Source: Yuukianura sp. NJ FZ-2021
Lineage: Eukaryota
Direction: 5' to 3'
Assembly (NCBI GenBank): GCA_046563655.1
Contig: CM102288.1
Span: forward strand, 496,001 to 560,000
Length of the DNA: 64,000 bases
The notes beneath the pieces are model-generated. The model was not told where the DNA came from, did no database searches, and saw only the letters and a list, made by a program, of their open reading frames with translations. Positions 36,888 through 64,000 of this stretch are shown piece by piece. Each line of letters starts with the position of its first letter. Position 1 is the stretch's first letter. The translations under genes and the position numbers were made by a program.

Positions 36888-39371
36888 ATGTCCGTGATTT
36901 GCCCAGTTGAAAAAAGTGAGTCCCACTCATCACTGAAAGAAGATCCGGACAACATAATTATCCAAGATCACATGAGTTCATGGCGGTTCCAAATGAACAT
37001 GACGATCTTCCTCCTCTTCTACACCTTCGGCGGAGCATGGGTTAGCTTTTTTAAAAAATTTTAGCATAACTTAAGCTAACTTTTACATTAACCACAACTT
37101 TTTAAATCCATTTTAGACAATATGTTTTTTTCAAAAAGAATTCATGAAAGACGAAAGGAATAACAAAAGTACAGGAAATAAGAGCGGAAATGAAAGTAGA
37201 AAGAAGAGAAAGTAGTAATCACATTTTGAAATTTCGAAGTTTTTTGTTCATTAGAAACACTTTCTTTATTACTACTACATAATCAATTCCTGACTTCGAT
37301 TACTAATTACTTAATGCCAGAGTAAATCCCTCAGGAATTAGAATAAATTAAACTTCTTTTCTGTAACTTCCCTCATCATTCTTCTCCCGCCCCTGGAAAG
37401 TTATGAATTTTTTAAACTGCCACGCAAAAGAGGAAAGGAAGTATGTTCCGGGATTAGCATAGGGAAACTAATTTTTTAAATAAACAAAACTTTTGGGTTA
37501 AAAAGTTATGTTTTTGTATTTGGACACTGGAGGAGGCGGAACTTGTTAAACTCTCTATGAAATATGAACTTTTAAATTCAAAAGCGAGTACAAACCAACA
37601 GCATTTTGACTTTCTTTAAAAAAAGCTGAAGTACTCTAGAATTTTTTTTCTGTTTTTTGTTTCAACGAAGAGACTACCGCAAGCACTCAACAGGTTTTGT
37701 TCGTTTGTTTTGAAATTTTAATGACTTTGTTGAAAAATATACCCAATTTCCGAAATTTAATGATGGGTTTGCATTACGATCAATACCAAAATCAATACAA
37801 AAAATTTGAAGTCAGCATTTTTTTTTTCAAACTCATGTGGTCATAATTACACTAGCCTTGTCATATGCTATAATTTGACCAACAAAAATTCGAACGCTGA
37901 AACTTGAACAACTGAAATGCAACATTCTGATTTTAAACTTTTTTTTTTAGATTTTTCAGGTACTGGAGAGTCGTGCAGAAATACAAAGAGTAGAATACGA
38001 TCAGTCCATTCTGGTTTCAGGGAGATCCAAACTGTTAGACACAATTGCCAAATTGGACCAGCTCTCAACCAATGTAAGCAGCACGACATTGGGTCAAATT
38101 CTAATTTGACCTTTGACCTTTGACCTCTGGCGTTGTAAATTGCAGGACTCCAAGAGTGCCAAGTACAACGAAACACTTCGAGCCCTCCAAGAGTACGAGG
38201 CAGCCATTGACTTTGTTCTGGACAGTCGGCCTACGCTCAACCAATTCCTAAATGAAACGAAAGGACCGACGTAAGTCACTCAGCCATAGAAGTTAAGGTC
38301 ATTGACCTTTGACCTTTGACCTTTGACCTTGTAGCCTGGAGTGGAGCAACTACCTCCATGTGTACTACTTCGTTCTGACTCTAATTTCAACCATTGGCTA
38401 CGGAAACCTTGCTCCCCGGACAACTTGGGGTAGAATTTTCTGCGTCGTGTATGGAATGATCGGCATTCCAGTTCTGCTCATCTTCATTGCCCAAGCAGGC
38501 AAAATTTTAGCCAAATTCTCAATTTCAATTCTCACCAAAATCTTCGGACGACACATCGGAAGCGCCTACTTTGCATCCGGAAATACTCGGAGCAGAAAGA
38601 TGCTTGGTACGTTTAAAACCTGAATGATGCTGAATGAACTTAATTTCAATTAATTCATAATTAGTTTAATTTAATTAATTTTGATCCTAGGAACTTCAAT
38701 TTCTCTGTCTGGCGTGATCTTTTTAGTTTTCATTTACATGGCCTTCGGTGCTTTGATCATCAACTCAAATGAATCGTGGGGATTCATTAACTCTTTTTAC
38801 TTTTGTTTCGTCACACTAACTACAGTAGGGTTCGGGGACTTGATTCCGCTAGGAGGTAACATTTTGAAACTTTTTGAAAATTTTGAAACTCAAAATATTT
38901 TTTCGAAATTTTGAAAGGTCAAGTGAGCCAAGCTCCGTACTTGCTGCTGTTCGTAAGGTCCATCTACACTCTGTTTGGACTTGCCATAACATCCACAGCA
39001 ATTGCACTTCTGCAGAAGCAGTATGCAGAAACATGGGCTAAAAAGGCCGCTAGAAGAAGCGACGCAAAAGAAGCAACTACGACAATTCAGCAAGTGGAGA
39101 ACTTGATCATCCATGCTGCTGGACAGTCATGCAAACAAGTACGTGGAACTCTCTTTTCACAAAAAAAGTAAAAAAAAACTTTTAAAAAAATCAATTTCCG
39201 AGAATTTCAATTTCAAATTTGCCAAAAAGTTGAAATACTCCTATTTCTTTGTAGTACTACGACTATAAACGAGAAGATAACCTAAAAACTAATGAGGTAT
39301 TGCTTAAAAAACGAAATGCATAATTTAAAACTGAAATAGAATTTGGACATTTTTAGAAACGAAATCAATAA
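36888..39371 (+). CDS. Two-pore-domain (K2P/TWIK-family) potassium channel, spliced
   Basis: TM1 FLLFYTFGGAW-IFQVLE; P1 LISTIGYGNLAPRT; P2 FYFCFVTLTTVGFGDLIP; TM4 IYTLFGLA. Start and final exon approximate. Confidence 0.88.
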
Positions 39372-40171
39372 TGCTTAAACTTTTCATGATTTTAAGGTCT
39401 AATTTCCAATTATGAGTATTCGTTGCTAAATTATTTAAATACTGATTGTATTTTAAAAAGTTCTCTTGAAATTCTGTTGAAAAACCTCACATGACCTTTG
39501 AATGACCCCGTGATGTTCCTTATGTGTTTTAGAATAGAGCAATTTAAGTGTGAGTAAACGTCTCGTGTAATGTCATGATTGCAATTCAAAGAAGTGGAGT
39601 AGTGTTGTGGTGAAAGTCAGAATAAAGCACATAACGGAGAATGGCCTCTTCAAAAAAGCGGGAATTTTTAAAATTCCCGGGAATTTTAGCTCTAAGCTGG
39701 AGAAGATTAGTTTCCTATGGAAATTGGAGCTCGTGCAAGAGAGAATGAATCGCGAGGCAGTTTTGGTTGGAAGACTAATTTTTTAGAAAATTGGATTTTT
39801 GGAAACAAAAGAGAAAATTTGATCACACAAGATCAGATTACATGCACTTGTTCCTGTTATCGTTTCAGTCTACGACACTTTTCAAACCGAAAAATTTCAG
39901 CGAAAATTGGAATATGGCGTGATTCACAGCAATTTCCACAAAACTCATTTTTGGAATTTTCAAGATGAAAAGTCTGATTTTCACATTTTCTGAAAATGAT
40001 TTACGGTATTTGATAAATATTTTTTTTAAAGATTTTAGAGTAAAACAATCTCAGAAGAAATCTCCGCCACCAAACCCACCGTTTTTAATTTAATAGCCAC
40101 ATTAAATGTAATTTTTAACACACTAATTTCTAAAATTTAGAAGAAACTGAACTTTTTTTTTTGAAATTGTG

Positions 40172-40798
40172 TTAAGTTATATTTTGTACAGCAGTAGAAG
40201 GTGGGACATACAATTCCCCAGAATCTGATGGTCGTTTTTCATAGTACTTGGCACAGTCCTCTTTCTTCTTATTGGACTTACAGCAGTAGCACCATGGCAA
40301 AACATCAGCCAGAAGATGATTCAGTTGCATCGTCAGATTACCGCCGGACCCACCCGGAGAGTATCGGTCAGCCGTACTGCCATTCGGTGGGCCCACGATC
40401 AAGGTCCCACTAGCATCATACACACACTGCTGCCCAGCTCCATTGGCAATCGGCACTTTCTGTCTGTAGTCAGCCACTGCTCCAGCATGGAAGTAACTGA
40501 GCCCTTGAAGGGTCCCCTTGACAAAGCGAGGGTCCTTGGCCGCCAGGGCTTCCATTGGTGGACAATGTTCCAGGGTTCCACCAATCCCCGTGTCCGATTT
40601 GTACCAACTGGAGCACCACTGACCCGCCAAAACCTGCGGTATGTTGGAACACCCACCCTGAAGTACCAAGGACAGTATGCCCATTAGGTCCAGTGGATTA
40701 GATGTCGCCTGCTTATTAGCAGTACTTTTGCTCCATCCCAAGTCACTCTGCAAAAACAATACAAAAATGAAAAATATTAACGCTGATTTTGAAACCAT
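40172..40798 (-). CDS. Secreted stand-alone AMOP-domain protein, intronless
   Basis: Signal peptide; HCPP...DPRF...FHAGA...GAGQQCVYDASGTLI...GSTAD...HLLADVLPWCYCC...CAKYYEKRPSD..YVPP matches the AMOP (isthmin/SUSD2/mesh) pattern. Confidence 0.85.
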   Translation of the reverse strand: MVSKSALIFFIFVLFLQSDLGWSKSTANKQATSNPLDLMGILSLVLQGGCSNIPQVLAGQWCSSWYKSDTGIGGTLEHCPPMEALAAKDPRFVKGTLQGLSYFHAGAVADYRQKVPIANGAGQQCVYDASGTLIVGPPNGSTADRYSPGGSGGNLTMQLNHLLADVLPWCYCCKSNKKKEDCAKYYEKRPSDSGELYVPPSTAVQNIT

Positions 40799-41345
40799 TT
40801 TGAAAAGTTTGGACTTTCAACAACTTTGTTCTCTTTTGATAAGAACTACAGTGTATATATAACGTAAATGCGAGGCTAACTTTGAAAAATACGAGGCCAA
40901 TTTTGTAAAATTGGAGAATTTTAAGTAGATCCTTGTAGTAAAAGTCACTCATGACCTGGAACAACTGGAACACGAAAACCTTTCTCATTATGATTAAGTT
41001 CTAGTTGAACATTGAACAATTTGACACTTTGACAGAGGCGTGATAATGAATTAATGCTTTTCCAAAAAAAATTCACTTCCAAAAAACTTTATGTTTTTGC
41101 AAAATTTGGATTCCTGAAACTCTCCTTCAACTCTCTATTGTTCTCAGTCCACTGATCTGGAACAACTAACTACAATACTACAATAATACTTGCAAGTAGC
41201 AATCGATTATCAATGTGATAAATCAAAAAGTTTCACTTTCGGACATTTATGTAACAATTTTATAGAAATAAAAGTTATTATAACAATAATAAAAAATTAT
41301 TATAATGATTATAATATTCTAACATAAAGGTAACAAAGCTAATGT

Positions 41346-44300
41346 TCAGGGTGAATCCCAAGCGTAATCGTTGTGTTTCGACTTGGGGCTGGAGATTATC
41401 CAAGGTTTTTTGGCGGGAGATTTGCTTTTGCTCACGGCTAAATCCGTTTTAGATTCTGACAGTTTTGCTAAAGATTTGCCAGATTTGTTAATCTCAGATT
41501 TGTTGTTCTCAAATTTATTGACCTCAGATTTGTTAGAGGTCACTTCGTCGTGTGCAGAAGTTTCCCAGTCACTTGATTTGTTCAAAGCGTCTCCATGTTT
41601 TTTCGGACTGACAAGTTTAGATTTTTGTTTTTCGGTAAGTGGACTGCGGCGCTGTTTGAAATCTGGCGGAGAAAATTTTGAATCTTCCCGCTGCAAGCGC
41701 TTTAACTTTTTCGTACCGCCGGAAACCGAAGTTCCGGACGAACTTTGCGATTCGGTACGCTTGATCGCTTGACCTGATTTGACTCTTAGACCAAATTCAT
41801 TCAGTCCTGCCATTGGATTGTGGTAGATCACTGCCCGAACGGTATTCGGTTTTGTCGGCGTTCGTTTCGGAGATGCTGCGAGATTTTCTTTGTTCCAATC
41901 CTTATTGTCATCTTCGGGCACTTTCGGCTTTGGTCGGGGCCTAAAAACCAAAATTAGTTCAAAGATTTATGAAATTTTGAAGTTAGACACCAAAATTTTG
42001 AAATTTTACATACGGTTCAGATTCAATATCTGAAATGTCGTCGAAACTTCCGTTGCTGCTTTCGTCATCGTGGAGGGAAGACAGAGATTGCTCGAAATTC
42101 AAATTTTGGTCTTCATCTTTTGGTGTACTTGAGTAAACTTTATTTTGAAACGGTTCAAAATTTTCATCGGAATCGCTTGACCCATTTCGCTTCTTCTGCG
42201 CTTGCGTTCGAGTCGAAGGGCCTGGAAGCGGCGATTCTTTACTTCTAGACAGCACACTATGCTTCCCCTTCTCTATTTCCTTGGCCGCTTTTCTCTGAAT
42301 TTCAGTCAATCTCACTTCGACATGTGATTCATCCGGGGTCATGACCTTGACCTTTGGTTGACCTTTGTCAATTGACAATCTCTTGGCAGAAGTAGGCTTT
42401 CCAGGAGAACTTTTATGTGTTGGAGTTGGCGTGTTGTTGTTAAAGTTGATTGGTCTCGTTCGTTTTAGCCCTTTTTGTGCACCTCCCGACTCTTCCAGTT
42501 CATCATCCGAATCGGATTCGGAATTTTCCGACTTTTTCCGTAAAATGCTTCTCCGAAAAAAGGTTTGTATCGCCGGTTTTTTCTTTTTGGATGCTTTAGT
42601 TGCAGAAGTTTGTGACTTTGCTGGAGGAATTGGAGGTGGAGGGGCAGATTTACGGCTTGGCGGTTTCGGTTTGGCGAATGGAGGAGTCGAACCGGCTCCA
42701 ACTCTGGGAGTCGAACCGGTACCCACTCTTGGAGTCGAACCGGTACCGACGCTTGGAGTGGAACCAGCACCGGCATTAAACTTCGGTCGGATTCGGGGAG
42801 ACTGAACTTTGACCTTGGGTTTCCGTGAAGCAGTGCTGCCCATGAGAGACATTTTGCGCTTCAATGTACTTCCACCGCTTTTGACCGCTCGAAGCATTTT
42901 GGAAAGCGGTGAGGCTCCAGGCGCCTGCAGCGGTTTTGAACTTAGCCGCCGCGAATGCTGCATTTCGTTCAGTCGGGATTCAAGCACTGCTGCATTGACT
43001 GCGACGTTTGTCTCGTTTTTCTTCAGTTCCCGCTCGGCAGCAAATCCCTCCACTTCCTGTTTTAAAAAATTCAAAATTTTAAAAAAGTTGAGAAAATTGA
43101 AAAATTTGGTAAAAAAGGAGATTGACCTCTGACCTCATTTAGACTTTCCCGCCGTTTTTTCATGGCGGTAATACTTTTCTTCAGAACATTTCTCGGCACT
43201 TGCGTAGTGTCTGGTCGAATTCCAAGTTGCTCAAGCTGACGACTCAGAACTTCCAAACCCTGCGCCTGCGCATCCGGTTTTGCCGGAGTCGGACGAATCT
43301 CGAAGTCGTCTGTTTCGGTATGGGCATCCGTGGAGGTCACCAGGAAGGGGTCATTGACCTTTGGTTTTGACCTGACCGGAGATTTTGGTTGACCTTGGAC
43401 AATTTGCTCCACTGGAGCGTAACTCCCGATTGACGAAGTATCGTCACCACTTCCGGAATCGTTCGACAAATTATCCTGTTCCGGATCCGGTCGAATCGAC
43501 ACTTCAAAACCACGAGACACTACTGGCAAGGTCATTGACTTTGCCCTTGGTTGTAAACGATATTGGTCAGGCACTTTCGGGGGAAGTCCGGTAACAAGTT
43601 TCGGTGATTCGGCTCTTCGGGATTCTTCGGGTGTTTTCGGTTTCGTTTCGGCCGGTCTCGGCAAAGTTTGGATTTGTAAAGATCTTGGTCGTGGTTTCGG
43701 AATTGGCCGAAACGGTTCGGCTTCTTCAACAGATAGATTGTCGCTGTCTACAGTTGTGACTGTGGTGGCAGAGGTAATAGGTGTGGGAGGTTTGACCTTG
43801 ACCAAAATAGACTCATCCGAAGGCCAGTTGACCTTGACCTTTGGCTGAGGAGAGGATTTGACCTGATCTGTGACCTGGTGCTGGTCAACATTCTGTTGGT
43901 GCAGAGACGCTTGAAATTCTTGGCGCAGGCGTGTAATGTGTTCCTGGTACTCGTTTTCGACAGTGCGCAGCTTGGCTCTCCAAAATCGTTCTTGCGATTC
44001 CATTCGACTTTCTATCAAGCCAATATCAGCTCGAATCTAGAAGAAATAACTTAAAGTAATTAAAAAATCATTATTTTTCTAAATTTTAATTAATTACTCT
44101 AAAATTTCACCCTAGTTTGTAAATTTAGCTTCAAATGTTCAAATTCATCTTCTTGTTTTTGAATCCTCTCTTCGACACGTCCTACTAGTGCTACCGAGGG
44201 AGAAGTTAATGTCGCTGCGGCGACAACTGGAGACGACGCATGCGCTGGTTTTTGTTCTGATAGTCCTGTGGCTGATTTCGTAATAATCTCTTGCATCTTC

Positions 44301-45560
44301 TACAAAAAGAAAAAAAGTTCAAAATTTAAAAAGGTTTAGCAAGTTTATGATTGTTTTTAAAGTTTTTGAAAATTGCTGCTTTCTGACATGCATTTCTTCT
44401 AGTAAAGTTGTTTTGAGTTCCTCCAGTTCCGTTTTGTGCATTTTTTCAATGAGACTCCTCCATTGACCTTCCAGTGCCTCCTTCATGTCTCCAATTGTAC
44501 CTTGACTGGTGACCTCTGCGGTAGGCCATTGACCTTCCGATTTGGTTCCGACTGTTTCCGAACTGTGCCGAATGCCGCCCGAACTCGAACTGACTCTTTC
44601 CTTCAAGTATTCTTCCACTAGATCGTTCACTATCTGGCGGTCTATCAATGTCGCCGTAGACTTGCCTATTTGTGGCGACACTTCAGCATCGTCAGTCTGT
44701 GTCGACGCAGAAGCAACGGCGACATTTTTTTGCACAGCGTCTTGATCACTTCCTGCCTGATCTGCGGAATTTGCATTTCCGCTTTGTCGCTGAGTCGGAA
44801 GACGAATTGCTGGAAGCCCTTGATGTCGCCGTTGAAGATGTGAGTACAAGTAGACAGTGTTGATGAACTTCTTGTCGCAGTAGGGACACTGAAAATTCAG
44901 TAATTACTTAATTACAGGTGTAATTACGAATTACTGGAGTAATTACTTAACTATTTCGTTTGTATTTCGATCTCACCTGATCAACTTCTTCTCTACTTCC
45001 ACCGTAGTTTTCAAATTGGCTGGACTGAATTAAATCTTTGCGTCGTTTGAGCTCTTTTTTGGCCTCGACCAATCGGTTTCTGAGGCGTTTAATTTCTTCT
45101 TCCTGTGCTCTGCTCCTGTGCAACACTTGAGTGTACTTGGAGTCAAGGTCATTGACCTTCCCCAGCGACACTTCCTGAGAAAGTATTAAATGCTCAATTA
45201 TCAATTGACCCAGACGAAACACTTTCCGAAATCCAGGATCTGTTCGGTTGTGGTCAAATTCAACATCAGGTTGGCAGAAAACGATTTGAGGCAGGATTTC
45301 CCGCAAAGTCTCTTCATCCGTTTCTTCAATTATTTTCTCAATGTCCAACGAAGCTATAACATTCACAAAAATTAACTTTCAAAAAAATTTAATTTTTCAA
45401 AAAAATCCGAAAGTTTCAAAATTTGAAATTCCGGAGTTACTAGTAGTAGGTAGTAGACTTTGACTTTACCAATTCTTTTCCAATCCAGACTTTCTACTTT
45501 TCGCAACTGAATTGATTTGGTTAGTGATGGGGATGGATTTGGAAACAGGATTCTGGACAT
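41346..45560 (-). CDS. DZIP1: DZIP1/DZIP1L (iguana) ciliary basal-body C2H2 protein
   Basis: ESLDWKRI-ASLDIEKII...DPGFRKVFRLGQLIIEHLILSQ (Dzip-like N domain), CPYCDKKFINTVYLYSHLQRRH zinc finger, coiled coils, long low-complexity tail. Confidence 0.88.
42683..42775 (-). repeat. Coding 24-bp tandem repeat x4 (G[AT]GSTPxV)
   Basis: GAGSTPSV GTGSTPRV GTGSTPRV GAGSTPP; DNA core ggagtcgaaccgg. Confidence 0.85.
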
Positions 45561-45731
45561 TTTAATTTTTCGGAAAATTTTTCAAAATTCTGTTCAAACA
45601 CGTCCAAATACCAAGTTTAGAACACAGATGAACTTTGAAACTTGTATTACTGTGAGTGATTGTATATTTTTCTATCAAGTTGTTTTAAACAAAATCAGAC
45701 CCTCGTGTTTCATGTCCCTGTCTACGTATCG

Positions 45732-45745
45732 GTTGCCATGGCAAC
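45732..45745. promoter_or_regulatory. Perfect palindromic RFX X-box upstream of DZIP1
   Basis: GTTGCCATGGCAAC, about 170 bp upstream of the ATG at 45560, followed by a further GTTGCC half-site. Confidence 0.88.
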
Positions 45746-47157
45746 CGTTGCCAACAACATTCGCATGGTACAGTACAAAGCGTAGAGCAGATTTTTTTTT
45801 GAATTCGTAACTTGTTTTCAACTGTGTTTGAAAAATAAAGTGATCCTGTTAAAAATTAATGGTTTTATTTAATTCTTTCAGATTTGTAAAACATTTAAAT
45901 TTTGAATTGTTAAAACATAAACACTTATGGTCAATATTATATTGGTAAAGTTAAATTTTAACAGCTTATCTACTAATAAGCCTAACTTTGAAGTAATTGC
46001 AAGAAAATTTGAAAATTGGCAGTATTTGATAATTTGATATTACGCAACCTTGTCAAAAAAAAATTTTTTTAAAAGCACTTCCTGTACATTTTTAGGAGAT
46101 AACTTTAAATGACGTCTGGACTTTTCTTGATTTCGGTAGAAAAATTGTGAATCATTTTTCGAAGATAAGATTGTGCAAATTCTGTAGTTTTTTGCCATTG
46201 TACAAGGTTACATCATCCCCTCCCGTCTTTAGCAAAGAGTCAAGGAAATCTGGCAAAACAAAAGATGAGTCAAAAGTTAAAATTAAACTTAAACTTTAAT
46301 GGTCGTGCAATTGCAAAGAATTGCAAATTAGCTAACTTGTGGTGTCAAGTTCTTGTGAATTGTGATTTTGACTATATGCTTAAGCTGAAGTTTCTGATTC
46401 ATCCCTAAGCCCCTCCCACTTCCTTCCAAAAACGTAGAAATGTGAAAACCAAATTCAAAATTTTGACGAATACTTCGTTTTTTAATATAAAACTCTCACG
46501 CGGGATAATAATTAAAATGTTGCTTCCGCGATCTTTACCGTGACCTAAATTTACACTTTTCCTCACTTGTCTAAAAAAAAAACTACCAAAAAGAGATGAC
46601 AAGGTGTTGGCCTTGCTTGAGTGACTCTCGTCTCAAGGCCAAAACTTCCCTGTTTCTACCATAATTACACAGTTTTGTTGTTTTGTTTATAAAGATGAGC
46701 TCATCTGCTGCATGTTGACGAAAAACTTGTTTTATAATGGGCAAAATTTCTAATTTATAGTTTTAAACTTCCAAAACAAATTGACTTGAAGACAAGTTTC
46801 AAATTGATGATCAACTAAAAGCTTGATGAACAACTAAATTATTCACGAATTCAAGAAATTAACGAATTCTAAAATCAAAAAGAAATTGAAATTGTACAAC
46901 TCTGTACAAACTGCAAGAAATGCTAAACTTCAAAAGATTCTTTCCAAATTTGATTCTTTGGCACAAACTCTTAGCCCCATTTTTGAATCGTTTCCAAATT
47001 GAAGCAAAATTCTTGCTGAATCTTGATCATTGAACTCAAAAAGACAAATACTTTGAAGTTTCAAAATTTAAGATCTTCTAACAATTGAAACTGAACTTAA
47101 CTTATAACTAGGAGTTAAATTGTTAATTAAGTTAGGAATTACTTGATTGTTGTGACT

Positions 47158-47331
47158 CTAAGAAGATCCTTGGAGTACGACCCACAAAGCATGGATGATC
47201 CCGGGAATCCAGAAGAAGAAGCAGAGACAAATGTTGATGGCAATGTCTTGACCACACCCTTTGACCAAGAAAACAGCCAAAGGTGGAAGCAGAATGGCCA
47301 AAATGATGATCAAAATATCCTTGGGTTCCAT
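47158..47331 (-). CDS. PMP3/UPF0057 (RCI2/YqaE-type) small plasma-membrane proteolipid, 57 aa, intronless
   Basis: MEPKDILIIILAILLPPLAVFLVKGCGQDIAINICLCFFFWIPGIIHALWVVLQGSS* has the family signatures ILLPPLAV and IPGIIHAL; below the ORF-track length cutoff. Confidence 0.92.
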   Translation of the reverse strand: MEPKDILIIILAILLPPLAVFLVKGCGQDIAINICLCFFFWIPGIIHALWVVLQGSS

Positions 47332-52805: not shown

Positions 52806-54084
52806 TTTGCTATGCTAATAACTGGTCGGTACGATTCTGTCAACGGTAAATCTGCCAAAATCAGAGGAAAAGTCAACTTTTTAGGCATAATGAATTTCAG
52901 ATAGGAGAAAACGAGAAATAGCGTTCAAGATCAAGAGTTACTGACCTCTGTTTCTGTGCCGGTAATCTAAATGACGTAGAAGTTGTACTGAATGTTGAAT
53001 TCGGTGTTAATTAGTTTAATTAAAACAAACAAAACGGTGGTGGGTGTTTTCTTAAAATGAGGAAACTTTGTGATTAAAATGAAATTGTGAATGGGCTGGG
53101 CTTTACGGTTTCTCTCTAATTTCCTCTACGCGCCTCATCAGCACAAAGTCTCACTCTTTTTGCCAATTTTGTCACTCCGCATCGACACCTTTTACCAACA
53201 CCAAAACAGTTGTACGACTCATTTGCATAGGATATTCAATATCTACACACGGCTGTGAGGTTTCGCACGCCAACTACTAATTTAGTAACTTACAAAAAAA
53301 AGTCTGCAATTAAACGAATTAAACGGTAGTTTACCATGTGTTGAAGAGATTCGATTACACATTTTGGCAACTTTTTTCTAAAAATTTAAATCGGAAGTAC
53401 GCTGTATACTGATACTCGACTTTATGCGTTTAACGGGGTTTAACCATTATGAAATCACTCAATAAGATTTGGTGGAGCTTAATTCTAATTGGTAATTGTT
53501 AATACTAAATACGCCAAGCCAAGAATTATTGCAAAACATTTCTTGAAACGTGGAAAAGACAATCTCGTCAAATCTGTAGAACTTGTTTTTTATCACGAGA
53601 AGTAAAACTTTTAATTTTTATTGAACGATCTTAAAAGAATGAACAATAATTCAATTCCGATCCCGAGTAACACCCAGAAAAGAGATCATAATCAAAGGCG
53701 TGGCATCGTCTTGAATGAGAGTACTTCGAAGAAAGTTGCAAAAAATTTGCAAAACTTTTTAGTCTTGTTTGCAAAAATAAAAAGTGAAAGTAAATTAGCA
53801 AAACAAAGAGTTTGATTTTAATTAAGACCTGGGTGGGATCATATGACTCGTATGCGTCAGCGTCATAAGAAGTTCGAATGATTCAGCACAAAAGTTGTGG
53901 AAAACAGATGATCGAATCCTGTCCTGTTATTTGCAAAGTTGTCTCTTCGTCAATAACAAAGTGATCTTGAGCATAAGTGGGTGGTCAGTAATTAGCTCTG
54001 AACTTGTATACAAAGTCAAAGGTCAAAGGTCACATTATTACGCCATAAGGTGACATGGAGTCCTGCTAACGTTTTACGATAAAA

Positions 54085-54742
54085 ATGGAAACTGATGAAT
54101 CTCCAACTACAACTTCAAACGACGTAGAAGATAACTCTAAAGTAGAGGACAATCATAGCGAAAGCAAAACCGACGACAAAGGTCAACCGAGTACTGCAGA
54201 GGTAGAGGTCAAGAAGCCAGAGGTCACTGAACCACAGTCAGCCAGTTCATCTCCAACTAAAGTCAAAAAGACCGAAAAAAGTAAGTTTCGACATGAAAAC
54301 GTTTATAAAACGTTTCAACAAACTCGTACTTATGGCTTTCGAATCTAAAGAAGTTTTAGTTACTCAAGTTATTAATTGTGATTAAATTTTTTTTTGTGAT
54401 TGACAGTAAACATTTTGCTGAAACCAGTCGGAGACGCACCGATTCTAAAACAGCGATTGTGGGGAGTTGATCCAGACAAACCAGTATCCAGTATCCTCCT
54501 GTTCATCAAGCAGTACATGCGACTTGAACCGGATCAGAACTTAGTAAGAACAGTTCATACTTTAAAACTTAAACTTGAAAAGTACTTAATATATGATTCA
54601 TGATTGTCATATTTTTCAGTTCTTCTTTGTCAATCAAGCTTTTGCTCCCTCTCCAGACCAACTAATCCGAAATCTGTACGAGTGCTTTGGTTCCGACGGT
54701 CGCCTCATACTAAATTACAGCACTACAACAGCATGGGGCTAA
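54085..54742 (+). CDS. Atg12: Autophagy ubiquitin-like protein ATG12
   Basis: [36 protein letters not shown], ends TTAWG* (C-terminal Gly). Confidence 0.95.
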
Positions 54743-55234
54743 AACGAGAGATTCTGATGCTGGATGACTCGACAACTTCATCGTCCTCGACTTCCTCCAA
54801 TGAAATTATCATTGATTTCGACTGGTCCATCAAAGAAGAGGATGAGGTACAAAATAACGTTGTTATTTCAATACCTTTACCTTTTGAAGCAGCATGACTT
54901 CATGCACGAAATCACAAACACTTCACATTCTCCCTGACTTCCACCGCTGAAAAGAAAAACATCATCTCCCAACTGAAAAATCCGCTTATCATCCTTTCCT
55001 TCTCCCAAACAGTTTTCAACAATGGGACACTTCTTGCCTAAGGAACAAACTAACCTTGGTACGTCTCCGCTCTTATGAGTGATGACTTGCGATTTCTAAA
55101 AAAAATCAGCTAGATTGACTTTGCTTGCGTCCATTTTGAACATTTCGTTACTTGACTCCTGGCGCTTCCGCTTTTAACTTCTAAGCTCCAAACGCTTTGT
55201 TCCTAGAGTTGCTTTCAAAAATTTTTACGACAAA

Positions 55235-56010
55235 ATGTCGTATGTCGACGCTCACCAGTATCTCCAGCCCAGTACCTCTAGAATCATAAAAGAACCGATG
55301 CTGCAGCTCCAGCGCGGTGGAGTCGGCGCAGTAAGTTCCAGTCCAAACGCTTGTCCGGAACGCCTAACTTTTCATCTTTCGGTTTTTAGAGGAGGATTGT
55401 AGAAATCTATGTAAGCATGTTTTTTTTTTGTACTTTTTAGCCGCAACAACAACACCAAGGTCAAATGGGCCAAATGTCGCCAATGTGTGATGTGATGTCG
55501 GACGACGAGCTGGTGACCATTTCAGTCCGTGACCTCAACCGAACTCTAAAAGCACGCGGATTATGTCGTGAAGAAATAGTTCGAATGAAACAAAGGAGAA
55601 GAACTCTCAAAAATCGCGGTTATGCTGCAAGGTACTAAGACAAAAAGCTTGCTGTCAAAAACGTTTTATTTTCGTTTCGACTTTCGTCGTTTGAACGTTT
55701 CGCTTTATGCCAATTTATTTTTACTTTTCAAGTTTCCTACCATTAAAATTGAATGTTTAGTTGCTTATCTAAAAGTAAATCCAAAATTTAAAACTAATTG
55801 CGGTTGTTTTTAAAATTTAGTTGTCGTGTCAAAAGACTGGAACAGCGTGATACACTGGACACTGATAGAAACATGGAGCAGTCTACAATTGAGCAAATGG
55901 TGACCAGAAATGAAGAAGTGCGGGAAGAAATAAAAGCATGGGAGTCAAAGTATGAAGCTCTGAGGCGGTTTGCCCTCCAAAAGAATATTCCATTACCTTA
56001 TGATATGTAA
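55235..56010 (+). CDS. maf-S: Small Maf bZIP transcription factor
   Basis: [22 protein letters not shown]...[21 protein letters not shown]; short N-terminus without an activation domain. Confidence 0.9.
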
Positions 56011-56068
56011 ACTACTGTAAATCATTTTCAAATTAAGTTAAAATTAAAGTTAGAGTTAATTACGTTCA

Positions 56069-57797
56069 TCAACCGTAAAGAAATCCGCCCTTATTTATGC
56101 TAATCCGCTTCCTAAAGCTGAATCCTTTGCCGAATCCAAATCCTCCCCACGGATAGCCTACTGATCCGTAGTAGCCTCCAGGATATGGATAGCCTGGAAC
56201 TGCTGCTGGAGGAATCACTACTGCCGGTGCTGGAGGAGTGACAACTGCTGGACTGACGACTGCTGGAGTGACGGCTGCTGGAGGAGTGACGACTGCCGGA
56301 GTGACGGCTGCTGAAGGAGTGACGGATGCTGGAGTGACGACTGCTGGAGTGAGGAGGACTGCTGGAGGAGTGGCGACTGCTGGAGGATTGAGGGCTACAG
56401 ACGGACTGACGACTACATGAGGATTGATGACTACATGAGGATTGACGACTACATGAGGATTGGCGACTGCCGGAGGGGTCACGAATGCAGGATGAGTGGC
56501 GACTGCTGGAGGGGTAACGACTGCATGAGGAATGGCGACTGCTGGAGGAGTAACTACTGCAGGAGGAGTGACGACTACATGAGGAGTGACGACTTCTGGA
56601 TTGATGACTACAGGAGGAGTGACGACTTGAGTGCCAGTAGGCTTCGGGTGGTGATGGTGATGGTGACCGTGGTGGCCACCGTTGCCATCCGTCTCTGAAG
56701 TTATGACAGAAGAAGTTGCCGTTGCAGTTGCTTCGACCGTTGACTTTCCACCGGAACTACCTTTGCCAACAATTGGAATCATAAGATGCATTGGCTCAAC
56801 GACCTGAAAAAATCATCACGGTTAATTTTTGAATTTATGCAATTTGCAAATTCTCAGAAAAGATTCCAAAACAGTCAAAGTTTAATTTACATAATGAACT
56901 ACGTATTTTTTCTTACGTGATATGCATTATGAGCATTGTATGCATTGGCAGCATCAATAGCCGCCACAGCAGCTTGGAAAGCCAGCAACTCCTCGTCACT
57001 CACAACGAGACATCGGACAGCGCCTTGTCCAGGACACGGTGCAATGACCCCGAAATCACGAACGTCTGTTGGCAGCACACCGTAAGGTCGAGCACACTGA
57101 GCTTGCGGGACACAAGCAGCAGCAGCAGCAAACGAATCCTACACAAAAAAAAATGATTACTAAATTAATCGATTACTTACTCGATTAATCGATTACTTAC
57201 GTAGGTCCCAGCCCATGGTCCGTCGAAACAACACGTTTGAAATGTCGTTCCACAAACGACATCAGAGAAACGGAGAACAGATTGAGTATAGGCTCCCGCC
57301 GCTCCAGAACAAGCTCCGCGTGTGACGCAGCCGCAGTTGGGCAATGCTCCAGCATGAAGTGGCTTCGGCGTGTCGAATCCAAAGTGTTCCGTCGGTATCG
57401 GTAAAGGTCCTTCCGGTCGTACGTAAACTCCGGCGGGTTTCGAAATGGTCGTTTCAGAAGTCACGCCTAAGATGGATTCCGACGCAGACGCTCCAGAACC
57501 TTGGACATGATAAATGTGACCGGGAATCTCCACACTTAGCATTTGGGCGACATCAGCTTCGTCGTGGTCAACGGTCGCAGTAGAAGCGGAAGCGGAGACT
57601 GAAGCAGTTGACATTGTTCCGACATGAAGGTCATTTCCGGTAACAGTAGACAGTTTTCCGCTTCGGCGAATACCGGCACTGATACTTGAGTATTCGGTGT
57701 CCGGAGTTTCACGAGGATCGAGTTGACCTTGAGCAGGAACTAAGAAAAGTGCTACTGAACAAATCAGAAGTGGCAAATGACCTAAGGTCAACGCCAT
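56069..57797 (-). CDS. Secreted protein: two clip-like Cys modules, His tract, Val/Pro/Ala-rich repeats and Gly/Tyr tail (cuticle/extracellular-matrix-like), 3 exons
   Basis: Signal peptide; CGCVTRGAC...CGTTFQTCC; middle exon (56937-57140) CVPQAQC...CPGQGAVRC; (V/A)V(T/N)P(P/H) repeats; GYPYPGGYYG...GFGFGKG tail. Confidence 0.75.
56215..56630 (-). repeat. Coding 15-18-bp tandem repeats (AVVTPP / VVNPH)
   Basis: Plus-strand units such as ggagtgacgactgctgga and ggattgacgactacatga repeated about 20 times. Confidence 0.9.
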
Positions 57798-58178
57798 TTT
57801 TGTTTCTTCTTGGTTAGATATGTGTCACACTGCTAAAGAAAAAGTGACTTGAAAGTTAGAGGTTGAAAAATAGACTGGAAGGAAATAGTAGTTGGAAGGT
57901 ACATTTATAAACTTTCTGCAACAAAAAAAGTTAATTAGCAAATCAAACTGAAAACTTTCCAGTTTTATGTGCAACTTTTTTTGTTGCAAAATTGGAAACT
58001 TCCAAGAGTTAATTACATTTATTCAAATTTTAGCAAAGGCAAACGAACGAACAACATCGTTCATTTGATTTTTAGTAAGGAATAGAACGAATGAGGGGTA
58101 ATGAATGTAAACTTAGCTTATTATGTTCGTCGTGTGTAGGAAAGCTTATACTGTTGCTTGGACTGTGACGAAGAGAGT

Positions 58179-58699
<521 letters not shown>

Positions 58700-59279: not shown

Positions 59280-61063
59280 TCAAACTTTAGTTTCAAAATT
59301 TTGCGCCAGAGCTACTCGTTTCAAAATGTCTCCCGGTCCTGGTCCTTTTCTTCTCGTTTCAATTTCATGTAGAATGGCCAATCGGAATATTTCGTAACTC
59401 ATTACAACTCGTTCCAATTCGTGTCGAAACAATCGTTTGAGCATCGTATCGAAACAATCCAGTTCCGGTAATTTAAATAGTTCCCACCTTAGTTTTCCAT
59501 CTAACTGCGATGGAGCTTGTGAATACACTTGGAGCCAATCAGGGATATCTGAAAAGTCAAAAGAAATTAATCAGAGGTCAATGACCTAGCAACATTCTTT
59601 TCTTAGACTGACTTTGATCCGAGATCATTCACAAAAGTCTTTTACCTTGAAGTAAATACGGAAATCCAGGAACTAGAACCGACGGAGGCTTGAAGTCGGT
59701 GTGATGCGGCTGATCTCTCATCTGATTGGTGAAATAGTGACTGTCATTGACCAATGGCTGCGGTCTTGAGGGGGTCAATGACCTCAGGGCGTTGTGACCT
59801 TCATGACTAGACGGAGTATTGCCTCGGGAAGAGCCGGATGACCTCAGGGCATAGTAGACCGGTGCACATGGATGTTCATACTGAGTTTGTCGGGTGATAT
59901 GACTGAAAAAAACAGAGTTTTCAAGGTAAAGGTCAACTATTAACCCAGATCAGGGTCAAACGAGGTCATTGACCTCTGTAAGTACCTACTTCACATAGTA
60001 GACACCGTAATCCTGTGATTCAATGCGTTCCCATCCGGTGGGCAGTCCTTCCTGGGTCAATGGATGTGACCAGTGTGTCGTCTGTGTGTTATGGTCAATG
60101 TAGTACTTCCGACCACGCAGTGTTTCGTCGACAGACCATCCCGATGGCAGTGGCAACTCTTCACAACTTCGGCCTAACATTTTCAAAAAAAAAATTTAAA
60201 AACCTTCAAAATTTTGAAAAACTGAAACTCATACTTCGACTCTGATATCCTCCGTAGTTGGCAGCCGTTTTCTTCTGGAACTGTGATCGCTCTAATTCCA
60301 ATTCGTCCAAATTTACATACGAATTTGACGAGTACTTTAACCTCTCCGGTGTTCTCTCGTTTCCTATTCCATCCTATATCAAGAATAAATAAATATAATA
60401 TATAAATTAATACATAAATAGTATAAAGTGAACCAACTCACTCTAAACTTTGAGTATTCACTAAAATGTTGATATGGTGGACACGGTGGAGCCGAGTTAA
60501 GCGAAGTTTGTGACCCTGCTGACCCACCGCAGTAATTCAAAAAAGTCATTCCTCCCGGGAGTACTTGACCCCCAGAATCCGAAAAAAATTGTTGTTGCTG
60601 GAAGTTTCTTGCTGGAAGTATTTGCGTACTTCTGGAGTCGAAGTTGGGAAGGGACGTTGGTCCTCCTGTGTGGAGTAACCTTTGACCTGCATTTGAGTTA
60701 AGTGGAACTTCTATAAAAGCATTTGGAAGGCCAAGGGAGTTCACATTTTGGTAAAATGGCTGCAATTGGGACGGAGGTTGCTGATTTTGCTCTGCTCGGG
60801 CAGCATTTCGCTGTTCCTTTTCAATCGCTTTCTGTTTAGAACGAGCGTATTCTTTTCCATTTATTTTGTCTGGTGTCCATACATTGATCACTGTTTCAAT
60901 TTAACAAATACTTTTTAAATTTTCAAAATTTTGACATTAAAAAAAACGTAAAAACGTTTTCCTTACTTGACACTGTAGACGGAACATCCTTCTTGATATA
61001 CCGTCCGGCAATCCCAAAGTCCTGCTGACTTTTGTGCTTTGAATCTTTCTTTTTCGACAGCAT
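59280..61063 (-). CDS. sav: Salvador (Hippo pathway scaffold; 2 WW domains + SARAH)
   Basis: MLSKKK...GRYIKKD N-terminus; [70 protein letters not shown]. Confidence 0.94.
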
Positions 61064-61531
61064 TCAAAAAATTTGTGAATAAAAAGTTAAATTAAATTGA
61101 AAGCAAAAACACAGTTCATCAGATTTTCTTTCTCTGATTCGAAAGTTCCAAATTTTGATCTATAATAATATCAAAAATGATAAATTTGGAATAAGTTTTT
61201 GAATTTTGAGTTCGGCTGTTTCTGTTTATGTTTGAAATTTTGAACTTTGGAATTCACATTTTATTTGGCGCAAGTTAATCCGAAGAGTACAAAATTCCAT
61301 TCTCTGTTGGTCTTAACTCATTAGCACTTTCAACTCAGTGCTAAAAAAAATTAAGTTTTAATCCTGAGAAGGTGATAGATTTTTGAAATCGTCATTTTTT
61401 AAAAATTTAAAAAATACAAAAGTTTTTTTTTTTTTATTTTTTTTACGAAAATCTGAAAAACATTCAGGTTAGAGACTATTCCATCTGTTGCAAAAACCGT
61501 AAAATTCAAAATTGCTCATTTAGGATTAAAA

Positions 61532-63255
61532 TTAAGGGAAAGAGTTAACGTCGTCGAAGCTTTTCTGAGCTGTTGTTGAAGTTGTTGTGTCATCTGAGGT
61601 CATTGACCTTTGACCTTCTGCGAAGTCATGGACACTAGCAGTGGTGGACAAGTAGGAGGTAGATGGTGGGGGGCAGTCAAGGTCAAATTGGACACTGGGC
61701 ACCCCAATGCTGTCAATCGAAGAGAGGTCAGAGGTCATCGACCCAGTTTCTTCTCCGTTTGGTTCCAAATCTACAAATTGTCTCCGGAAGTCACTCTCCT
61801 GCCAATTTCAAACATGAAAAAAGATGCCAAAGTTCAAAATTTCAAAATTCGAAAATTTAAAACTAACCCTGTTTCTGTTTCCGGTGGTGGGAAATGGTTC
61901 ATAGGCAATGTCCGTAAAATAGTTTCCGTCTGAAATGTCGCTGTCTGAAGAATCCTCCCAGCAAGAATACGTAACTTTTTGTTTGCAAATGGGACAAACA
62001 CGGCGTATTTTGAGTAACCAAAAGTCGATACAGTTTGTGTGAAATCCTAAAAACCCAAAAATTGAAGTTTTAAAAAAAATTTGGCTTTCTTTTATTTGTT
62101 TTAAAAAGTTACTTTACCGTGATTACAAGGCAGTATTTTCAAAAGTTCAGCATCCCCGTACTCTTCCATACAAATTACACAAGTTTCAAATTTTTCAACC
62201 AAATCGTCCTTCCATTCAACAATTGCTAAAGAAGATACTGCCCGTGTTAGCAGCGTTTTGCGCCTGTCACGTCGATGTCGCTCCACCCATTGTTGAAATC
62301 CACATTCATAAATCTGCAAAATCAAAATTTTGAAATAAAATTTTTGACTTTTTAGTATTTGCAAACATTGTCTTACAGGCTTTGCAATACATAACACGAA
62401 AAGTAAGAAAAAGAAGGCTAGAACGGTCCACAGGAAGTAGAAAACGACATCTTTGTAAGTTGGTGGATTAGTGTTGATTCTAGCAAAATATCTACACAAA
62501 ACAAATAATTTTGAAAAAAAAAATATTTTTGAAAAAATTGTTTTATTTTATGAAAATCACCTTTTGCTGTCGTTTTGAGTAAAAATGTGTTTCAACTCGC
62601 GTCCATCGTAATCTCCAACGAAGAATGAAGGAACGACGATTTTGATTGGTCGTCCGGCTTGTTCTTCCGTGAGGCCAATGACCTCTGTGTCATTTGACCC
62701 CACGTTAAAAATCACTAGTGCTGAGTAGCCAGCAGCATCAGCATGCTCAATTTTAGTTTTGTAAGGACAGTCCAACTTGGAAGCCAATAAAATCCAGGGT
62801 CTTTGACCTTTGACCTCTCCACTACTGACAAGGTCAAGGTCAAACATTTTGCGAAAATTCGCTGGAAATCCGGGCGGTGGGTCAACGTCTTTGCAAGCGT
62901 TGATTGGATTTGACAACTGGACGAGTCCCTGCAAAAATTAATTTGATTAAACTTTAGAGGTCAGAGGTCAACGTTTAACTTTGAAACTCTTTTAACCCTA
63001 CTTTAGCCTATTTTCAATCTAATGTTTTACCTCAATTTCGGTAGGAATTTGTGTAGTAAATTCAACTACTGATGGTTGGTCAATTATGGAGGTCACAAGA
63101 GTGTCATTGTCCAGTGAGTCAAAAATTGAAATTGTTCCTTGTGGTGGGATCATGTAAAAATAGGCGTCTAAAAATCCTGTGACACTTGGGTCAAAGGTCA
63201 CCGCGGTCACAAAAGCAAAAAACAAGGATTTGACCTCTGCTGCTGATGATGACAT
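61532..63255 (-). CDS. PA-TM-RING E3 ligase (RNF13/RNF167/godzilla-like)
   Basis: PA domain (GLVQLSNPINAC...CPYKTKIEHADAAGYSALVIFN...VPSFFVG), TM helix, RING-H2 CVICMEEY...LPCNH-FHTNCIDFWL...CPICK. Confidence 0.87.
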
Positions 63256-63692
63256 TCTGAATATTTTGACTCAAAGATATCTAATCAAGCTTCTCACAAA
63301 ACTATTTCTTTAATAATTTCGAAAATTCTGCACGGGATTGAGCAAAACCAAAATTTTGAATTCAAAAACAGAACAACATTCTATGTCGAAAAAATTCATT
63401 TGAGGAATGAGTCACACTCTTCAAAAAAAAACACAATAGGAGTTCATATTTAGAAAAGATTAAGGAAGGAATCAAAGGTCAAGTTCAACAAAAGCATGAA
63501 AATGTGAAACACTTTTTCAGAAAAAAAAAGTTCAACAAAAATGTTTTCCCCAAAAAGTTTGATTCAAAAAATACAAATGGAAAAATTCTCTTGAAAAATC
63601 TGAAAAACTTTGATTTTTTAATATTTAGATTTTTGAACAAAGGTGTAGAGTAAACATAAAGCAGTTTTTAGTCACTTTGGGTGAATTCGTGA

Positions 63693-64000
63693 TTATTTTT
63701 TCTTGGATTGACCTTGACCTTGCCCCATGGGGGTGGTCATGCTCTTGACAAAGTCTTTTCTCTGTTGTTCCAAAAGAAGTTCCAAATGATTAATTCTAAT
63801 TTGACTCTTTTCTAATTGCTTTCCCAGTTCAATCAAAGTTTCTTCTTTTCTTGCTAGTGTCTGTTTGACCCGTTGACCAATTCGTTCCATCTCGGCTTCT
63901 TTGTCTGTTCTAAATTTTTCAAAATTCCTTTGACTCTGTTCTAATTCTAACTTGTTCTTGGCTTTCAATTCAACCACGGCGGCTTTCACTCCTGCGCAGT
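63693..64000 (-). CDS. C-terminus of CEP131/AZI1 (dilatory)-like centriolar satellite protein, partial
   Basis: EMERIGQRVKQTLARKEETL...RINHLELLLEQQRK resembles the conserved CEP131 C-terminal coiled coil; runs off the window. Confidence 0.75.
   Translation of the reverse strand, partial: CAGVKAAVVELKAKNKLELEQSQRNFEKFRTDKEAEMERIGQRVKQTLARKEETLIELGKQLEKSQIRINHLELLLEQQRKDFVKSMTTPMGQGQGQSKKK

Follow-up and report, generated by a model that had tools for sequence, protein, structure and literature searches.

Gene content of the locus

The DNA analysed here, referred to throughout as the window, comprises 64,000 nt of contig CM102288.1 in the Yuukianura sp. NJ FZ-2021 assembly GCA_046563655.1 (positions 496,001 to 560,000 of the forward strand). 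Its subject is the hexamer AGGTCA (TGACCT on the opposite strand), which equals a nuclear-receptor half-site and which recurs in the window as palindromes, as perfect tandem arrays and as single copies in introns, spacers and coding exons of unrelated genes. Pfam matches on open reading frames mark the window as a gene-dense animal locus, and its genes and short GT..AG introns suggest that the genome is compact. Exons and introns were taken from a self-trained Viterbi gene finder to which 6 exons were added by hand; the resulting models agree with the Pfam-supported frames and are approximate. Altogether 93 introns were predicted, with a median length of 81 nt and the signals GTAAGT..TTTYAG.

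Among the Pfam-supported genes are a two-pore K+ channel gene (37.9-39.3 kb, plus strand), whose Ion_trans_2 match lies on the exon following the first of two array-bearing introns, and a Dzip1-like gene (42-45.4 kb, minus strand) with an exon for the Dzip-like_N domain. The WW-domain gene (59.3-60.9 kb, minus strand; WW Pfam match) may be Salvador-like, judging from two WW motifs and the C-terminal sequence, and is accompanied by a gene combining PA and RING domains (PA-RING; 61.5-63.2 kb, minus strand). ATG12 (APG12 Pfam match), a Maf bZIP gene, an AMOP-domain gene and RhoGDI are likewise supported, as are a protein kinase, a LanC-like protein, an Na/H exchanger, an RRM protein, Img2 and Tctex.

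Excess and arrangement of the AGGTCA unit

The hexamer occurs 110 times in the 64 kb, where base composition predicts 26-27 copies. Markov simulations (200 runs for each order) gave a mean of 29.3 and a maximum of 54 at order 1, 25.5 and 38 at order 2, 36.4 and 59 at order 3, and 78.8 and 105 at order 4, a model that already contains the 5-mers. Five perfect palindromes AGGTCANTGACCT (equal to AGGTCAnTGACCT) are present, at 38296, 45146, 59575, 59963 and 61597, and none was found in any of 100 dinucleotide-preserving shuffles. In the same way TGACCTTTGACCT has 10 overlapping matches (22462, 32580, 38107, 38114, 38303, 38310, 38317, 54020 on the minus strand, 61604 and 62804), compared with 0 in dinucleotide-preserving shuffles. 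Base, dinucleotide or higher composition up to order 3 was rejected as the cause, given the absence of palindromes from the shuffles and a count of 110 against a maximum of 59.

The bases that flank the hexamer extend it to a unit RAGGTCAA, or TTGACCTY in the complementary reading. Of the 110 sites, 96 have A or G at position -1 and 66 have A at +1, a preference shared by the 42 isolated sites, which lie more than 25 nt from any other half-site (R at -1 in 33, A at +1 in 25). A second flavour of the unit reads CAGAGGTCA/TGACCTCTG. If RGGTCA is allowed, the window holds 143 sites; these form 86 clusters, of which 29 contain at least two.

Within clusters the units are arranged in few ways. We counted 14 direct repeats with a one-nucleotide spacer (DR1), 5 without spacer (DR0), 5 with an eight-nucleotide spacer (DR8) and 7 inverted repeats with a one-nucleotide spacer (IR1), while every other spacing between 0 and 20 nt scored 0-3; the DR8 pairs are units two apart within one array. 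A single unit that is duplicated head-to-tail or folds back on itself is expected to give just such a restricted set of direct and inverted arrangements. Direct units are mostly separated by 0, 1 or 2 A; C and G spacers also occur. Within 20 nt there are 22 inverted pairs (AGGTCA..TGACCT) and 7 everted ones. At the centre of the IR1 13-mer, each of the 15 matches that have at most two mismatches carries A or T, indicating that the palindrome is one sequence, AGGTCA(A/T)TGACCT, rather than a pair of half-sites with a free spacer. In terms of geometry, pairs of RGKTCA half-sites in IR1 or DR1 arrangement, as in nuclear-receptor response elements, are thus present as five perfect IR1 sites, two GGGTCA variants and the 14 DR1 pairs.

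Tandem Repeats Finder reported 7-bp arrays at 38105-38126 (3.1 copies, 100%) and 38302-38330 (4.1 copies, 100%) and several further arrays of 2-2.5 copies, so that these loci are head-to-tail repeats of a 1-9-bp unit at high identity. The AGGTCA family thus fits the definition of short tandem repeats, to which inverted forms and a peppering of exons are added. Identical longer strings recur too, for instance a 20-mer common to 38296 and 61597. Perfect copies stand beside decayed ones: DR1 has 10 perfect, 7 one-mismatch and 9 two-mismatch matches. Among one-mismatch variants of the hexamer GGGTCA (2.0x), AAGTCA (1.9x) and AGTTCA (1.4x) are enriched, AGGTTA (0.44x) and AGGTCT (0.23x) depleted. 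Four modules, at 18357, 41519, 48362 and 62802, combine inverted copies around loops of 8-14 nt and fold as DNA hairpins with stems of 7-14 bp, the best two being those at 48362 and 62802; they measure 20-45 bp in total and have no family consensus, and by eye we saw neither target duplications nor internal sequence.

No flanking sequence is shared between the sites. The only repeat family that coincides with them in the window (D11, five copies of 30 nt) is alike over the motif only, and the marks of transposons or miniature inverted-repeat transposable elements (MITEs), namely shared sequence beyond the motif, terminal inverted repeats and target duplications, were not found in the window. 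Cluster orientation along the window is random (30 adjacent pairs of equal orientation, 30.2 in permutations, P = 0.57), and Rfam gave no match at gathering score anywhere in the window.

The initial annotation of this DNA had listed most of these sites from inspection of the letters, and its descriptive part held up. The five palindromes all lie where it had placed them, and two GGGTCA variants given as near 43348 and 59773 were found at 43348 and 59772. TGACCTT arrays at 38107-38126 and 38303-38329 correspond to the two perfect Tandem Repeats Finder arrays, and the further direct repeats that it named were recovered at 14722 (a direct repeat with two-nucleotide spacer, DR2), 22462, 32580, 43123 (C spacer), 48362, 54013/54020, 62804 and 62958 (G spacer). 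Its statements that the motif lies far above chance and that the sites are patchy, without shared flanks and not copies of one transposon agree with our data, the former by dinucleotide- and codon-preserving shuffles, both run within the window and both exceeded, the latter by the behaviour of D11.

Regional distribution of the units

The excess is regional and not uniform within the window, although the initial annotation had considered a genome-wide role for the hexamer. Counted per 2 kb, the first 32 kb hold 0, 0, 0, 1, 0, 3, 1, 2, 1, 3, 0, 4, 2, 0, 1 and 1 hexamers and the last 32 kb 5, 1, 1, 10, 4, 16, 5, 1, 5, 2, 1, 7, 4, 9, 7 and 13, in rough agreement with the limits of 38096 and 63725 proposed earlier for a dense zone. 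From 1 to 20 kb the density is about that of chance (11 hexamers), while 38-64 kb holds 84 hexamers, or 3.2 per kb. Split by compartment, 1-20 kb has 2 sites in 8,908 bp of coding DNA (0.22 per kb) and 9 in 11,092 bp of non-coding DNA (0.81 per kb); the corresponding figures for 38-64 kb are 47 sites in 11,081 bp (4.24 per kb) and 37 in 14,919 bp (2.48 per kb), compared with 0.48 and 0.34 per kb expected from base composition for coding and non-coding DNA, respectively. When all k-mers were contrasted between 38-64 kb and 1-38 kb, the AGGTCA family came first at k = 5, 6, 7 and 8, and no other k-mer family stood out.

Inside the dense part the sites are again patchy, with 35 in 38-46 kb, 9 in 46-54 kb and 40 in 54-64 kb. 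Outliers upstream of it are six half-sites at 32496-32600 in a coding tandem repeat of 42-51 nt (DDPKVKGHE, DDPEVND), a DR1 pair with one additional TGACCT at 22462-22505, and the DR2 pair TGACCTTTTGACCT at 14722-14735.

Copies in coding sequence

More than half of the hexamers of 38-64 kb (47 of 84) lie inside predicted coding exons. To ask whether the encoded proteins account for them, the coding sequence was shuffled 500 times among synonymous codons: in 38-64 kb 45 copies were observed where the shuffles gave a mean of 8.3 and a maximum of 17, while in 1-38 kb 9 were observed and 5.7 expected. Gene by gene, the coding 5-mer is 4-6-fold over expectation in the Dzip1-like gene (29 observed, 6.9 in shuffles), the WW-domain gene (8 and 1.4) and PA-RING (15 and 2.8), and ten gene blocks in 1-34 kb are at expectation. 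Codon usage or amino-acid composition was rejected as a cause on the basis of the count of 45 against 8.3 and of this excess in individual genes. The 45 coding copies use all five stop-free frames (S0 4, S1 17, S2 12, A1 6, A2 6), which, together with the excess over the synonymous shuffle, argues for an origin at the level of DNA rather than of peptide. Recurrent encoded peptides are KVK, KVN, QGQ, KGQ, EGQ, EVK, VTS and xDL, and the copies lie mostly in disordered or variable stretches of the proteins. In coding arrays the frame is kept, by DR0 pairs or, at 61597, by three 7-nt units; arrays with 3-4 copies of the 7-nt unit are found in introns instead.

The Dzip1-like gene is the richest example. 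In its 383-codon open frame (minus strand) GGGTCATGACCTTGACCTTTGGTTGACCT at 42336-42364 encodes part of ..GQPKVKVMTP.., and a DR1 pair with C spacer, TGACCTCTGACCT, sits at an exon/intron edge (43123-43135). Five half-sites including the IR1 variant GGGTCATTGACCT follow at 43334-43395 in coding sequence, with peptides such as SKPKVNDP and VQGQPK, and five TGACCT including a DR0 pair are found in coding DNA at 43793-43876 (PQPKVKVNWP and LVKVKP among the peptides). Three TGACCT at 44464-44535 fall in a zinc-finger exon, where they encode EGQW twice and AEVTSQ. The perfect IR1 at 45146-45158 lies in the exon of the Dzip-like_N domain and encodes GKVNDLD; protein and profile have equal length in that match (106/106), showing that the palindrome arose there without net insertion.

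In the ATG12 gene three AGGTCA at 54180-54226 lie in N-terminal coding sequence outside the domain. The WW-domain gene carries GGGTCAATGACCT and two TGACCT in a coding linker (59772-59844). In PA-RING, AGGTCATTGACCTTTGACCT at 61597-61616 and the G-spaced DR1 AGGTCAGAGGTCA at 61725-61737 belong to the open frame after the RING exons; the former is read as ..AEGQRSMTSD.., its three 7-nt units preserving the frame. The first coding exon of this gene has GGGTCAAAGGTCA followed by a TGACCT (63188-63236) in the region of the signal peptide, with AAEVKS and FVTAVTFDPSV as encoded peptides. Close to the end of the window a DR0 pair, TGACCTTGACCT, marks the edge of the last predicted exon (63709-63720).

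The foldback at 62802-62844 lies within the PA domain. It consists of TTTGACCTTTGACCT, a loop of 13 nt and AAGGTCAAGGTCAAA, with a stem of about 14 bp (-10.6 kcal/mol, z -2.97), and encodes FDLDLVSSGEVKGQ in a loop of the domain. This protein loop has 25 residues between PPP and a conserved W, compared with about 9 in 11 of 13 aligned homologues, which are thus some 16 residues shorter; the two closest PA homologues carry unrelated longer inserts at the same place. A sequence search of the PDB with the PA exon returned weak matches only (E 0.096 or worse), which left the loop uncovered.

Copies in introns and intergenic DNA

Counted as the 5-mer, the K+ channel gene has no coding copies, and its non-coding DNA contains 14.6 per kb. 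Its 72-nt GT..AG intron at 38074-38145 holds, at 38091-38126, a GGGTCA followed by three TGACCT in DR1 register, that is (TTTGACC)3.1, and in the next intron (64 nt, 38271-38334) an A/T-centred IR1 runs into four TGACCT, again in DR1 register (38296-38329). Non-coding DNA further includes the foldback at 48362-48399, in which GGGTCAAGGTCAAAAGGTCA, 11 nt and TTGACCT form a perfect stem of 12 bp (-12.6 kcal/mol, z -4.25; none of 200 shuffles folded as well), a DR1 array, AAGTCAAAGGTCAAAGGTCA, at 54013-54032, some 55 nt before the predicted start codon of ATG12, and the single everted pair with one-nucleotide spacer, TGACCTAAGGTCA, at 57778-57790. In the WW-domain gene (minus strand) a perfect IR1 at 59575-59587 lies in a predicted intron of 97 nt (59549-59645), and AGGTCA, GGGTCA and a further perfect IR1 share an intron of 87 nt (59930-59975 within 59903-59989). 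A second G-spaced DR1, again AGGTCAGAGGTCA, occupies 62958-62970 in a 102-nt intron of PA-RING (62929-63030).

Sense copies of TGACC are concentrated in few introns, being present in 4 of 25 short introns in 38-64 kb and in 2 of 55 in 1-38 kb. These numbers rule out a general splicing signal, and a reading of sense-strand UUGACCU as a branch site, to which we give next to no credence, is largely refuted by them: a branch site is expected in most introns and at a fixed distance from the 3' splice site, neither of which is seen. In its favour, TGACC starts 11-66 nt from the 3' splice site in the four carrier introns of 38-64 kb, with 8 of the 12 copies at 18-42 nt, but exonic, intergenic and palindromic copies would stay unexplained.

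The array at other loci and in other organisms

Contigs of two of the five available sequencing runs (from two studies), X1 (organism A) and X5 (organism B), were aligned to positions 38001-58000. The summed depth of X1 reaches 1512 over 38001-38667, the bin containing the two channel-intron arrays, compared with about 180-660 in 28 of the 29 other bins. Loose contig ends accumulate there at 38296, 38302, 38330 and 38331 (9, 7, 12 and 11 contigs) with an agreement of only 0.46-0.50, and X5 contigs end likewise at 38316 and 38324. High depth and disagreeing loose ends together indicate that both organisms have the array elsewhere in the genome too, between unrelated flanks. Beyond the array, the matching contigs pass into unrelated sequence and not into long arrays. 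Among the joins listed, one X1 contig leads from 38121 back to 38103 across two letters; if this contig is allelic, its array would be 21 nt longer.

The same alignments gave two further observations. Contigs of X1, the best-matching run, depart from the window at 768 places in the 20 kb, which are often closely packed (e.g. 39338-39397); either polymorphism in the sample is high or a diverged second haplotype is present. A second pile-up of X1 and X5 contigs falls in bin 50674-51340 (depth 1241, compared with about 250), more precisely at 50913-51021 with loose ends at 50953 and 50973, and is probably a dispersed repeat of another kind.

Searching with the 20-mer common to 38296 and 61597 gave 14 loci in metagenome contigs, about 9 of them distinct, in all of which homology to the window is confined to the array. 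Several of these contigs hold extra half-sites (e.g. 12 in L001, where 1.2 are expected). In eukaryote-looking ones the composite of IR1 and DR1 is part of longer repeats (L008 at 740-759 and 1139-1158, with a period of about 400 bp; L001 at 841-870 and 1685-1800), which indicates that larger repeats carry the composite in other organisms. Viral contigs gave 0 matches, and prokaryote genomes a single one in 596 billion bases, roughly what chance predicts by our own estimate. That match belongs to an extended palindromic array of heptamers, which a radical-SAM open reading frame of a Chloroflexia metagenome-assembled genome reads in frame, as in metagenome contigs L005 and L010.

These bacterial-looking contigs, one of which is titled as a Chloroflexia metagenome-assembled genome, contain a palindromic heptamer array of the form (TCAAAGG)n-TCAATGACC-(TTCGACC)n, at 2985-3045 in L010, 2985-3035 in L005 and 1990-2045 in L015. 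The radical-SAM frame of L010 reads the array in frame as ..VKGQRSKVNDLRPLTFD.., and L015 appears by eye to be read in frame as well. The bacterial array looks like a very small palindromic insert within genes. Comparable arrays in bacterial open reading frames imply that such units can arise, spread and persist without nuclear receptors.

Origin of the AGGTCA family

On this evidence the signal resides at the DNA level, being independent of transcription strand, reading frame and compartment; perfect arrays, taken as young, stand beside decayed and older ones, and the dispersal needs no carrier element. We tentatively favour, with slightly more doubt than belief, a lineage-specific family of dispersed short repeats which arises and multiplies at the DNA level by slippage, template switching or mini-foldback and which survives in tolerant sequence. 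The unit RAGGTCAA would thus be made and multiplied as DNA instead of being built site by site through selection of enhancers. Replication slippage would be the simplest way for seeds to grow to perfect 6-7-bp tandem arrays, and intrastrand template switching or the insertion of a mini-foldback the simplest source of A/T-centred palindromes and short foldbacks. Where they are tolerated, in short introns, spacers, variable loops and disordered protein stretches, new copies may then persist, and within coding DNA only forms that preserve the frame are seen to last. Both the engine, slippage or template switching, and the near-neutrality of the copies are what we infer from these patterns. As the unit is a nuclear-receptor half-site, receptors of the RXR/USP, HNF4 or FTZ-F1 type, if present, are expected to bind it; we regard such binding as a by-product and not as what accounts for the sites.

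Several observations weigh against a dispersed repeat of this kind. It leaves unexplained why this unit was seeded at so many places, since slippage makes no seeds, and simple insertion fails for the palindrome at 45146, which did not change the length of its domain. A purely random process would not give the surplus of inverted over everted pairs, nor would a genome-wide mutational process obviously yield an excess that is regional and gene-specific. The enriched one-mismatch variants partly follow the receptor degeneracy RGKTCA, and R at -1, an A spacer in DR1 and an A/T centre in IR1 coincide with the features of optimal nuclear-receptor sites. Finally, all assignments to exons and introns rest on a crude, home-made gene finder.

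Some of these points would be met by a second explanation, in which an abundant chromosomal protein with sequence specificity, possibly a zinc-finger protein of the nuclear-receptor type, recognises the unit, and selection or biased gene conversion keeps the unit dense over chromosome domains. Its role would be that of a domain mark for pairing, compaction, dosage or recombination control rather than that of an enhancer. The step from 11 hexamers in 1-20 kb to 84 in 38-64 kb, the standing of AGGTCA as the sole k-mer family to distinguish 38-64 kb from 1-38 kb (k = 5 to 8), the excess at synonymous positions in several unrelated genes and the formation of the 45146 palindrome without change of length all fit such a mark, and the dominance of DR1 and IR1 with a ratio of inverted to everted pairs of 22 to 7 would suit a dimeric binder. 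On the other hand, perfect tandem arrays next to decayed copies resemble the dynamics of repeats, the density is patchy even inside 38-64 kb (only 9 sites in 46-54 kb), young insertions would give the same excess at synonymous sites, and one window of 64 kb cannot show a domain. We consider this explanation unlikely, though deserving of serious weight, and its stricter version, in which an animal genome keeps RAGGTCAA dense over selected domains, synonymous codons included, by selection or biased conversion for the site of a domain-marking zinc-finger protein of the nuclear-receptor or another type, distinctly unlikely. The alternative raised in the initial annotation, an undescribed genome-wide role in chromatin or structure, would be compatible with the regional restriction and the excess at synonymous positions seen in this sequence. 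A cut-and-paste transposon preferring TTGACCT is improbable as the source, although its footprints would cover much of the anatomy: duplicated targets would yield the direct arrays, resolution of hairpins the IR1 palindromes and local hopping the patches, so that direct duplications of 6-7 bp, A/T palindromes, spacers of A, C, G and AA, patchiness on a scale of about 10 kb and the missing element sequence would all be accounted for. Yet the window holds no element with such ends or target duplications, the sole foldback element in it (35039-35761) is unrelated to the AGGTCA family, duplications of seven bases would break reading frames, and the idea is wholly inferential.

As its main reading the initial annotation had proposed that nuclear-receptor super-enhancers are written over neighbouring genes, with EcR/USP on IR1 and USP/RXR, HNF4 and COUP-TF on DR1, and here, in contrast to the excess, the patches and the independence from one transposon, its interpretation was not supported. 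The sequences are identical to idealised IR1 and DR1 elements, the enriched variants partly track half-site degeneracy and one array lies close upstream of the ATG12 start codon, all of which would suit hormone-responsive regulatory DNA. Response elements are, however, expected outside open reading frames, and arrays of 4-5 perfect half-sites would be an unusual enhancer design; moreover, the K+ channel, Dzip1-like, ATG12, Maf, WW-domain and PA-RING genes have no evident hormone-response theme in common, and the same type of array exists in bacteria, which have no such receptors. The abundance of coding copies (47 of 84 in exons; 45 where shuffles give 8.3), the microsatellite-type arrays in non-coding DNA and the presence of the same array elsewhere with unrelated flanks leave the super-enhancer proposal unsupported, and we regard it as very improbable. 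Still less can be said for an origin by telomerase, which would have added telomere-like repeats at interstitial breaks during repair, using a template that gives AGGTCA(A)0-2. Direct units spaced mostly by 0, 1 or 2 A, a density that climbs toward one end of the window and hexamer units able to enter open reading frames in frame would be in line with it, but telomerase makes no palindromes, the contigs matching the array continue as unrelated sequence and not as long arrays, and C and G spacers exist.

Comparison with known systems

IR1 is the PAL1-type ecdysone response element, and DR1 is a site for RXR/USP, HNF4 and COUP-TF. AGGTCA(A/T)TGACCT and AGGTCAAAGGTCA in the window are identical to the idealised elements; different are the location of half of the 38-64 kb copies in open reading frames, the perfect multi-copy arrays and the dispersal with unrelated flanks. 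Microsatellites and the interstitial telomere-like hexamer tracts of nematodes share with the AGGTCA family perfect 6-7-bp arrays at many loci, decayed copies and possibly a length variant between haplotypes. In contrast to microsatellites the unit is not of low complexity, inverted forms are integral, copies occupy synonymous positions in open reading frames and the density is regional.

Foldback elements and MITEs can have inverted ends that consist of short tandem sub-repeats, and the modules of array, loop and inverted array at 18357, 41519, 48362 and 62802 are of this build, although they are only 20-45 bp long in all. In Caenorhabditis elegans the meiotic pairing-centre motifs and the dosage-compensation motifs enriched on the X chromosome are 12-mers in non-coding DNA. 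With them the AGGTCA family shares a short motif that is dense over unrelated genes of one region and often forms small arrays; here the unit has 7-8 bp, exons carry it too and the change in density is seen within a single window of 64 kb. A domain mark would resemble bacterial architecture-imparting or uptake-type words as well as the nematode pairing-centre motifs, but would be written through exons. Among the very small palindromic repeats that have entered bacterial genes are the small dispersed repeats and heptameric short tandemly repeated repetitive (STRR) sequences of cyanobacteria. The Chloroflexia-type arrays of L005, L010 and L015 are likewise palindromic heptamer arrays read in frame, as VKGQRSKVNDLRP there and as GKVNDLD and EVKGQRP here; they differ in stemming from unrelated organisms and in having one array per locus.

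Receptor half-sites can be spread by repeats, as reported for HNF4-alpha sites in Alu (PMC3252374). The likeness is that nuclear-receptor consensus sites were multiplied by a repeat instead of being built by selection, and the difference that in the present case no carrier element exists and only the sites are repeated. The literature retrieved on these arrays and on over-representation of AGGTCA in introns or nematode genomes concerns receptor biology, primers and unrelated matters and describes, in the excerpts at hand, no such dispersed family from invertebrates.

If the family is a neutral or selfish repeat, dozens of perfect high-affinity receptor sites would be able to reach introns, promoters and protein loops with no transposon to carry them. 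Regulatory rewiring and new peptide segments (PKVKV, KGQ, FDLDL) could draw on such copies, which would caution against taking motif density as evidence of enhancers. If, by contrast, it were true that selection or biased conversion maintains the word at synonymous sites over a domain, this would amount to a new chromosome-scale sequence code in animals.

Further repeats in the window

The foldback element at 35039-35761, about 720 bp long, has inner arms of 198 nt at 35132-35329 and 35351-35548, which are 90% complementary and 21 nt apart, and outer arms at 35039-35141 and 35659-35761 (87%). An 18-nt (6-codon) tandem repeat of about 23 copies lies at 56228-56636 on the minus strand, in an open frame of 247 codons that would encode a highly repetitive protein. 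Words of the TTCAAAATTTTGAAA type (families D3, D7 and D12-D16) recur on both strands of A/T-rich introns and spacers, for example at 16470-16527, 18131-18182 and 60176-60237.

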